Shown here: one piece after another, positions 5,693 through 6,266 of the stretch
Layout of the letters: every line of letters begins with the position of its first letter
Numbering within the stretch: the first letter of the stretch is position 1
NCBI GenBank assembly: GCA_964016885.1
Contig: OZ024756.1
Coordinates: 22,196,001 to 22,260,000, forward strand
DNA: 64,000 bases
Origin: Eledone cirrhosa
Lineage: Eukaryota
Direction of reading: 5' to 3'
Position numbers and translations under genes: made by a program
Notes under the pieces: generated by a model
The model's input: only the letters and a program-made list of their open reading frames with translations
Told to the model about the DNA's origin: nothing
The model's database searches: none

Positions 5693-5746
<54 letters not shown>

Positions 5747-5784
5747 ATTAAATAAATGGCAACTATATTTATAAAACCATATTT

Positions 5785-5848
5785 ATTTCATTATATATAT
5801 TTCGGGGATATCATATTAACAATATGTTATGCCTTCCTCAGACAAAAT
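5785..5848 (-). ncRNA. Type I hammerhead ribozyme (tandem sister copy)
   Basis: Minus strand: ATTTTGT-CTGAGGA-stem II-GAAA-TATATA-TA-ATGAAAT. Confidence 0.75.
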
Positions 5849-5974
5849 ACAATATAAACAGTTTTATAGATAAATAGATTCGACATACCGTTATAACACC
5901 GACTTCCATTTGAAGAGGTTTAGGCTGATATACGATATTAAACAAATGGAAACTATATTTATAAAACCATATTT

Positions 5975-6037
5975 ATTTCATTATACATATTTCAGGGATA
6001 CCATATTAAAATACGGCATGCCTTCTTCAGATAAAAT
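5975..6037 (-). ncRNA. Canonical type I hammerhead ribozyme
   Basis: Minus strand: ATTTTAT-CTGAAGA-AGGCATGCCGTATT tt AATATGGTATCCCT-GAAA-TATGTA-TA-ATGAAAT. Confidence 0.85.
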
Positions 6038-6218
6038 ACAATATATAAGCAGTTTTATAAATGGTAACCCTGAAATATGTATAATGAAATAAATATGGTT
6101 TTATAAATATAGTTTCCATTTGTTTAATATCGTATATCTACTCCAAAACTTGTTGATTGCTTTATATCAGTTATAAAATATTTACTCGTTGTAACCCAAC
6201 AATTTTAAATAAAACTTT

Positions 6219-6266
<48 letters not shown>

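Follow-up and report, generated by a model that had tools for sequence, protein, structure and literature searches.

Three truncated copies of an abundant octopus hammerhead ribozyme repeat in a split (AT)n microsatellite, likely ends of Penelope-like elements

The stretch of Eledone cirrhosa DNA analysed here (the window, 64,000 nt) carries, between two perfect (AT)n tracts, three partial copies of one repeat family, termed A, B and C. Two of these contain type I hammerhead ribozyme motifs, located by a type I descriptor scan within 5743-6221, both on the minus strand. Five family copies were delimited by self-BLAST, alignment and nhmmer, and one exon of a host gene was recognized by tblastn:

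5696 to 5742, no strand: (AT)n, left half of the likely target microsatellite (TRF, 23.5 copies, 100%)
5738 to 5927, minus strand: copy A, 5'-truncated, its tail-less element end running into (AT)n
5784 to 5849, minus strand: hammerhead A, C3 at 5841, N17 at 5792, CUGAGGA core
5871 to 5927, minus strand: part of copy A, the 5' flank of the family as judged from family reads; the "spacer" of the first-pass annotation
5928 to 6062, minus strand: copy B, with a tail-less end, 5'-truncated at the base of the extended helix I, 88% identical to A
5974 to 6038, minus strand: hammerhead B, C3 at 6030, cleavage site N17 at 5982, CUGAAGA core
6061 to 6221, plus strand: copy C, inverted, 5'-truncated inside stem II, no CUGANGA
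6138 to 6221, plus strand: tail of 84 nt, carried by C, D and E but by neither A nor B
6222 to 6266, no strand: (AT)n, right half of the likely target microsatellite (TRF, 22.5 copies, 100%)
45920 to 46188, minus strand: copy D, solo and more diverged, with 5' flank, changed core (CGGAUGA) and tail
46149 to 45966, minus strand: GT...AG interval of 184 nt enclosing the D ribozyme (sequence motif)
1 to 98, plus strand: copy E, a tail with an AT-rich repeat after it, incomplete because the window begins here
52770 to 52883, minus strand: host exon of a PLEKHG7-like RhoGEF gene, 38 codons, AG/GT ends (tblastn)

Copies A and B, identical in 120 of 136 alignment columns, come from different templates, whereas B and C, which match at all but one position (76 of 77 nt), meet head-to-head over a 2-nt overlap; A is complementary to C at 70 of 77 nt. 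Position 6061, where C starts, falls in the 3' strand of stem II, in agreement with the first-pass annotation, which had described an inverted copy beginning within stem II. It had also counted this copy as a third unit: the inverted copy is real, but, lying on the plus strand and lacking CUGANGA, it is not a third ribozyme. The description of the locus as tandem 190-nt units does not survive, as only 135 of the 190 nt are duplicated (about 1.7 units) and TRF called no tandem array at A/B. What is present is a 5'-truncated partial tandem with an adjoining inverted, 5'-truncated copy, the layout of a Penelope-like element (PLE), inserted in (TA)n; neither a poly(A) end nor a target-site duplication is visible at the A/B/C block. 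Each of the three copies carries private letters (5760, 6014, 6067, 6157), so the sequence does not decide the order of A's insertion. Further copies had been placed at 1-98 and ~45935-46180. Both exist, the second as copy D, but E consists within the window of tail only (92 of 97 nt, or 95%, identical to the tail of C), and D has a changed core.

The claim of two minus-strand hammerheads 190 nt apart was borne out: cleavage is predicted after 5982 in B and after 5792 in A, and the C3 positions lie 189 nt apart. The descriptor matched five times in the 64-kb window and not once in 100 dinucleotide-preserving shuffles made in 1-kb blocks. Both motifs contain the type I core elements CUGANGA, GAAA and NUH framed by helices I-III. 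Hammerhead A shows all four traits of PLE ribozymes, namely an extra base after A9 (a single A), G10.1-C11.1, a long stem II and a palindromic helix III (8 nt), and the register assigned to it is the one described for that class (PMC4209133). Hammerhead B has a stem II of 12 bp with one mismatch, one wobble in helix III, and U at 11.1, the letter that is also in the majority at 5804 in sequencing run X1. Helix II is long and variable in the family. Its sequence has diverged between copies yet still pairs, as the first-pass annotation had observed (-4.9, -11.4 and -8.3 kcal/mol for A, B and D).

Compensatory changes in the stems are present. Among the variant rows listed from sequencing reads, changes in helix I at 5979 and 6032 preserve pairing; 3 of the 12 insert rows listed give, by eye, stem II variants with 7-bp arms of differing sequence; and of 33 predicted pairs compared across family copies, one is altered on both sides (U-A to C-G), in a tally whose consensus helix I takes a shifted, non-active register. 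N7 is the sole core position that varies among the 40 of 78 variant rows listed, with two other letters at each of 5837 and 6026. A search of the whole window against Rfam at the gathering score gave 0 matches, so no hammerhead family. A local search with E up to 10 gave 27 weak matches, none to a ribozyme; these, for the most part hits of miRNA-hairpin models to (AT)n and to the B/C palindrome, were rejected as chance. At the level of sequence, A and B are confirmed as real ribozyme motifs, with self-cleavage itself a folding prediction.

The family was sampled at 80% likeness in four of 12 sequencing runs listed as carrying it, a list with no RNA run and from which the small-share runs X6-X9 were left aside, yielding 5782 contigs in X1, 1113 in X4, 87 in X5 and 36,443 of 12.5 million RAD reads in X10. 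The results drawn from these reads rest on 40 of 78 variant rows, 15 of 37 joints, 18 of 511 loose ends and 24 of 7023 contig pieces listed. The start of X10 reads at 6017 agrees with a GCATGC site in stem II of B (the enzyme is inferred), so this run over-samples B-like copies. Among the loose ends listed, family 3' ends pass into (AT)n at 5928/6137 in 23 and 30 contigs of X1, 2 contigs of X5 and 6355 reads of X10, so that in three of the four runs (AT)n stands at B's 3' end in place of the spacer. Other copies continue into the tail, with loose ends also at 6204, and the family thus has two alternative 3' ends. Reads run past 5889 in window-like sequence (5319 in X10, 2 contigs in X5), so the "spacer" is the family's ordinary 5' flank. 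Summed X1 depth falls towards A's 5' end from 1,796,120 (5791-5806) through 324,257 and 95,668 to 18,707, a drop of about 100-fold from the ribozyme to 5903-5918 that is relative only, carries no copy number and may in part reflect divergence from A. An exact search of metagenome contigs with one family motif gave 0 matches.

These reads bear on the two junctions of the locus. No joint going back 190 nt was found among the 15 of 37 joints listed, and no piece spanning the B-to-A or the B/C junction among the 24 of 7023 listed, while in X10 it is stem II sequence, and not the inverted arm, that follows beyond 6061 at 6498 loose ends. Given these and the (AT)n ends at 5928, both junctions look private to this locus. 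The B-to-A "monomer" junction in particular looks locus-specific, and rare tandem junctions may occur elsewhere.

The host exon at 52770, which the first-pass annotation had placed on the minus strand, was verified; it is 97% identical to an Octopus sinensis protein named PLEKHG7-like by its source. No further exon of the gene was detected by tblastn over the 52.7 kb downstream of this one. The locus therefore probably lies in sense orientation in a long intron of the octopus PLEKHG7-like gene, as inferred from one exon 47 kb away. In a sense transcript the antisense of C emerges first, before B, an order that matters for the folding predictions below.

When the predicted 190-nt circle was folded, its circular minimum free energy (-25.5 kcal/mol) was that of its shuffles (-25.0 +/- 3.7; z -0.13), 128 of 300 of which were as stable, so the model gives no self-pairing above chance. 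The helix III segments of B and A can pair over 8 bp, giving a possible double hammerhead, and in an RNA running from 6060 to 5745 this fold costs 10.0 kcal/mol, as against 19.1 for two monomer folds, which in the model favours the idea of a circle in vitro. The native helix I pairs have a probability of about 0 in the free ensemble, even without C. The presence of C raises the cost of the active B monomer from 6.1-8.5 to 32.1 kcal/mol and that of the double hammerhead from 10.0 to 59.2; since the folding models omit core tertiary contacts, proteins and ADAR editing or unwinding, the contrast weighs more than the absolute values. The B segment from GAAA through helix I is predicted to pair with C, with a mean probability of 0.96-1.00, from its emergence during transcription.

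With a probability of about 0.8, we read the locus as three clustered, truncated copies of a single, very abundant ribozyme repeat in a split (AT)n tract, likely pseudo-LTR ends of PLEs, from which no 190-nt circle is predicted. The traits behind this assignment are the PLE-type ribozyme, the palindromic helix III, 5' truncation, the partial tandem, the inverted copy, the tail at one end and the split (AT)n. Partial tandems, adjacent inverted 5'-truncated copies, a tail of 30-40 bp at one end and (TA)n targets are the signature given for PLEs in PMC8557442, where, according to File S2, some 100-300 nt separate PLE motifs from the 3' end, (TA)n is the preferred target of Hydra-clade elements, and an octopus Hydra element with a ribozyme is included. 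PMC4209133 describes an extra base after A9, G10.1-C11.1, a long helix II and a palindromic helix III in PLE ribozymes, and notes opposite-strand pairs of them 100-700 bp apart. Such elements are reported to make up 6.83% of the Octopus vulgaris genome, in 190 families (PMC13282606), and Penelope is listed among the expanded coleoid families (PMC8967140). Of the window's 261 complex ORFs, the 150 longest include no RT/GIY-YIG ORF; six short family motifs had no real match in the PLE supplement of PMC8557442; and the open-access literature yielded no description of this octopus family, nor of a ribozyme enclosed in a PLE intron. On sequence grounds, then, the locus is likely PLE-end-like, with a tail longer than described.

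A mechanism of this kind can be proposed. The PLE endonuclease would cut both strands of (AT)n, and reverse transcription would be primed from each end, the tail-less site giving B and the tailed site C. Copying of both would abort early, and the products would join head-to-head over the 2-nt overlap. A, which comes from another template, would have been laid down either through an earlier insertion (preferred, at about 60:40) or through re-initiation in the same event, so that the 190-nt spacing would be an accident of truncation. Precedents exist in a lizard PLE, which was reported to begin reverse transcription in vitro at two internal sites and to cut both DNA strands where the target is AT-rich (PMC11167929). 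In host sense pre-mRNA, the antisense of C would zip with B over about 76 bp, hiding B's helix III, cleavage site and helix I, so that B, thus covered, should be unable to cut or to partner A. The C-B intronic duplex would be a potential ADAR substrate. The predicted RNA product is thus a roughly 76-bp intronic duplex rather than a circle.

The first-pass annotation had instead proposed that a 190-nt monomer is released as circular RNA. In that account the locus is a non-LTR retrozyme dimer, or a newborn one, whose B and A double hammerhead cuts twice and whose monomer is ligated, for example from a transcript starting after C or from a duplex unwound by editing. It can call on two intact cores in the same orientation with the appropriate spacing, on the 8-bp helix III between B and A and the cheaper dimer fold, on a size and a GC content (27%) within the retrozyme range (PMC7229834), and on the proposal that retrozymes derive from PLE pLTRs (10.64898/2026.07.22.740005). 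Retrozymes are tied in PMC7229834 to canonical motifs, tandem arrays and self-paired circles, and the account of their derivation from pLTRs requires two TRF units (10.64898/2026.07.22.740005). The locus lacks three features of a retrozyme: at least two complete head-to-tail ribozyme units, since the duplication of 135/190 nt was not called by TRF; a monomer junction common to the family, not seen as a family feature in the 18 of 511 loose ends and 15 of 37 joints listed; and a highly self-paired monomer, given the z of -0.13. Nor did Rfam return a hammerhead match. Helix I hardly forms in the modelled ensemble even without C, and C, which the first-pass annotation noted without weighing its effect, is predicted to sequester B's cleavage site in the very transcript invoked for the circle. 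Precedent also argues against efficient processing, PLE-type motifs having low activity and cleaving weakly even as dimers (PMC4209133), with one of nine Xenopus dimers cleaved in vitro (10.64898/2026.07.22.740005). The retrozyme reading is therefore mostly not supported, and we judge it improbable.

Twin priming also yields head-to-head inversions. The locus might accordingly be a short ribozyme-bearing retroelement that is non-autonomous, mobilised by a LINE and inverted by LINE-type twin priming, an origin favoured by the want of a family-linked PLE ORF among the 150 longest of the 261 window ORFs and by a LINE-type zf-RVT fragment, below its curated cut-off, in the window. That no poly(A) end or target-site duplication is visible stands against it, as do the two fixed 3' ends with optional tail and the ribozyme type, which are PLE traits, and we give this origin very little weight. 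A shade less probable still is an assembly or library fold-back artefact at B/C: the arms are identical at 76 of 77 nt and none of the 24 of 7023 contig pieces listed spans the junction, but the arms are unequal at both ends, C's tail is missing from B, and 18 local inverted loci, their arms 70-99% identical, occur in the window, several of the same one-tail layout. The least probable, that B/C is a MITE (terminal inverted repeats, TA target) inserted into copy A, has in its favour near-perfect inverted arms beside TA-rich DNA and against it the reads, most of which pass 6061 into stem II (the 6498 loose ends of X10), the solo copy D and the asymmetric ends.

Inverted pairs are frequent across the window, where 18 merged local inverted loci, the B/C locus included, cover 5873 bases (9%). 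At least (AT)4 stands at an end of 12 of the 18, whereas random placement, repeated 1000 times, gave 3.8 on average and never more than 10; not all of the 18 need be of PLE origin. At 32712-33244, a second hammerhead family, unrelated to A/B, forms a head-to-head pair whose two arms both keep their cores intact (C3 at 32858 minus and 33159 plus), are 97% identical over 158 nt and are flanked by (AT)n; only one of the arms carries a further 60 nt. The pair at 59187-59466 has the same layout with changed cores; this one-tail head-to-head arrangement, recurring in an unrelated family, supports the assignment of the locus to PLE ends. The second family also occurs at 43618-43673. A third hammerhead-like inverted pair (13955-14113) has intact cores on its plus arm (C3 at 14076) and UAAA in place of GAAA on its minus, host-sense arm; a second descriptor missed the motif at 14076 because it forbids a mismatch at the helix II base. 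Further short head-to-head inverted pairs were found at:

1126 to 1581, inverted pair
13739 to 14489, inverted pair
33318 to 33480, inverted pair
33500 to 33617, inverted pair
44578 to 44704, inverted pair
49825 to 49951, inverted pair
49987 to 50333, inverted pair
52998 to 53193, inverted pair
54964 to 55079, inverted pair
59548 to 59855, inverted pair
60442 to 60544, inverted pair

These belong to several families, most end in (AT)n on one side, and some carry a GAAA half-core near the junction. Inverted pairs lacking (AT)n ends lie at 2639-3317, 15448-16025, 25478-25776 and 33891-34295, at least some of which seem to resemble octopus SINE sequence. The window also contains decayed LINE-like fragments at 27776-28875 (minus strand) and 53328-53876 (zf-RVT, E 4.7e-05; DUF6451, E 2.4e-04; both below curated cut-offs), and minisatellite arrays at 17288-17695, 22822-23266 and 42866-43356 with periods of 94, 212 and 41 nt (TRF), in none of which the hammerhead descriptor found a match.

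Three intact ribozymes lie on the host-sense strand, two of them (C3 at 6030 and 32858) in near-perfect inverted pairs, the third being A; changed cores are seen in copy D and in the minus arm at 13955-14113, both of them on the sense strand. These counts are too small for a claim. In D, and in part in A and C, the ribozyme is accompanied by splice-like motifs, a donor-like GTATGT upstream (46149 in D; 5888 in A) and an acceptor-like, pyrimidine-rich CAG in the tail (45966 in D; 6169-6170 in C). A and D are identical at 39 of 49 positions from the donor-like motif onward, compared with 20 of 41 upstream of it. Two copies of another repeat on the plus strand (49425-49470 and 51895-51949) end just after the same donor-like 10-mer (49461, 51940) and are followed by (AT)n; that the motif also terminates an unrelated repeat weakens the intron idea. 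Introns in the 5' UTR are known in Penelope and Chlamys (PMC8557442), and the 184-nt GT...AG interval as a putative intron around the ribozyme is a lead only.

A bolder reading, which we consider doubtful, would join these observations. Head-to-head PLE pairs would self-silence sense intronic ribozymes and be a main source of near-perfect dsRNA for octopus hyper-editing, and the parent ribozyme would reside wholly in a 184-nt 5'-UTR intron that is spliced from the mRNA, the intron-retaining RNA serving as the transposition template. Octopus has been described as having exceptional dsRNA potential and hyper-editing (PMC5625713); if this reading were true, PLE insertion mechanics would be linked to both, and the PLE ribozyme would have a splicing-linked role. 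As it stands, the locus adds a further truncated PLE insertion to a type of genome in which these elements account for about 7% of the DNA, and it has little significance of its own. It does illustrate that the retrozyme-like spacing of two ribozymes can arise by nested truncation without a retrozyme, and it offers a natural pair of constructs, one having the inverted copy and one lacking it, with which the tolerance of introns for sense ribozymes could be studied.

Compared with known systems, the locus resembles non-LTR retrozymes (PMC7229834; 10.64898/2026.07.22.740005) in having two same-strand type I hammerheads with a spacing inside the size range reported, low GC and a possible dimer fold. 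In contrast with retrozymes as described there, it has no complete second unit, its junction was not seen to recur, an inverted antisense copy lies upstream, its ribozyme appears to be of PLE type rather than canonical, and its predicted circle is not self-paired above chance. The likeness to PLE pseudo-LTRs with type I hammerheads (Penelope/Poseidon, Neptune, Hydra; PMC4209133, PMC8557442) is more extensive: the octopus ribozyme lies about 110-195 nt from the 3' end, and the extra base after A9, long helix II, palindromic helix III, 5' truncation, partial tandem, adjoining inverted truncated copy, one-end tail and (TA)n target are shared. It departs from them in an 84-nt tail, optional and at one end, where 30-40 nt is described (PMC8557442), and in a helix I extendable to about 24 bp; the A/B sequence also differs from the Hydra-1_Obim ribozyme of File S2 (PMC8557442). 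Finally, we compared the family with PAc, the Poseidon element of Anolis (PMC11167929). As described there, ribozyme cleavage in the lizard element is protein-assisted, with RNA-seq ends at the cleavage site absent, and its ORF starts inside stem II, whereas the ATG frames in stem II of the octopus family close within a few codons and a 184-nt GT...AG interval may enclose the octopus ribozyme. Like PAc, the octopus family has two alternative 3' ends, matching two RT start sites, and an AT-rich target, and both-strand cleavage of the kind reported for PAc would explain the octopus head-to-head pair.
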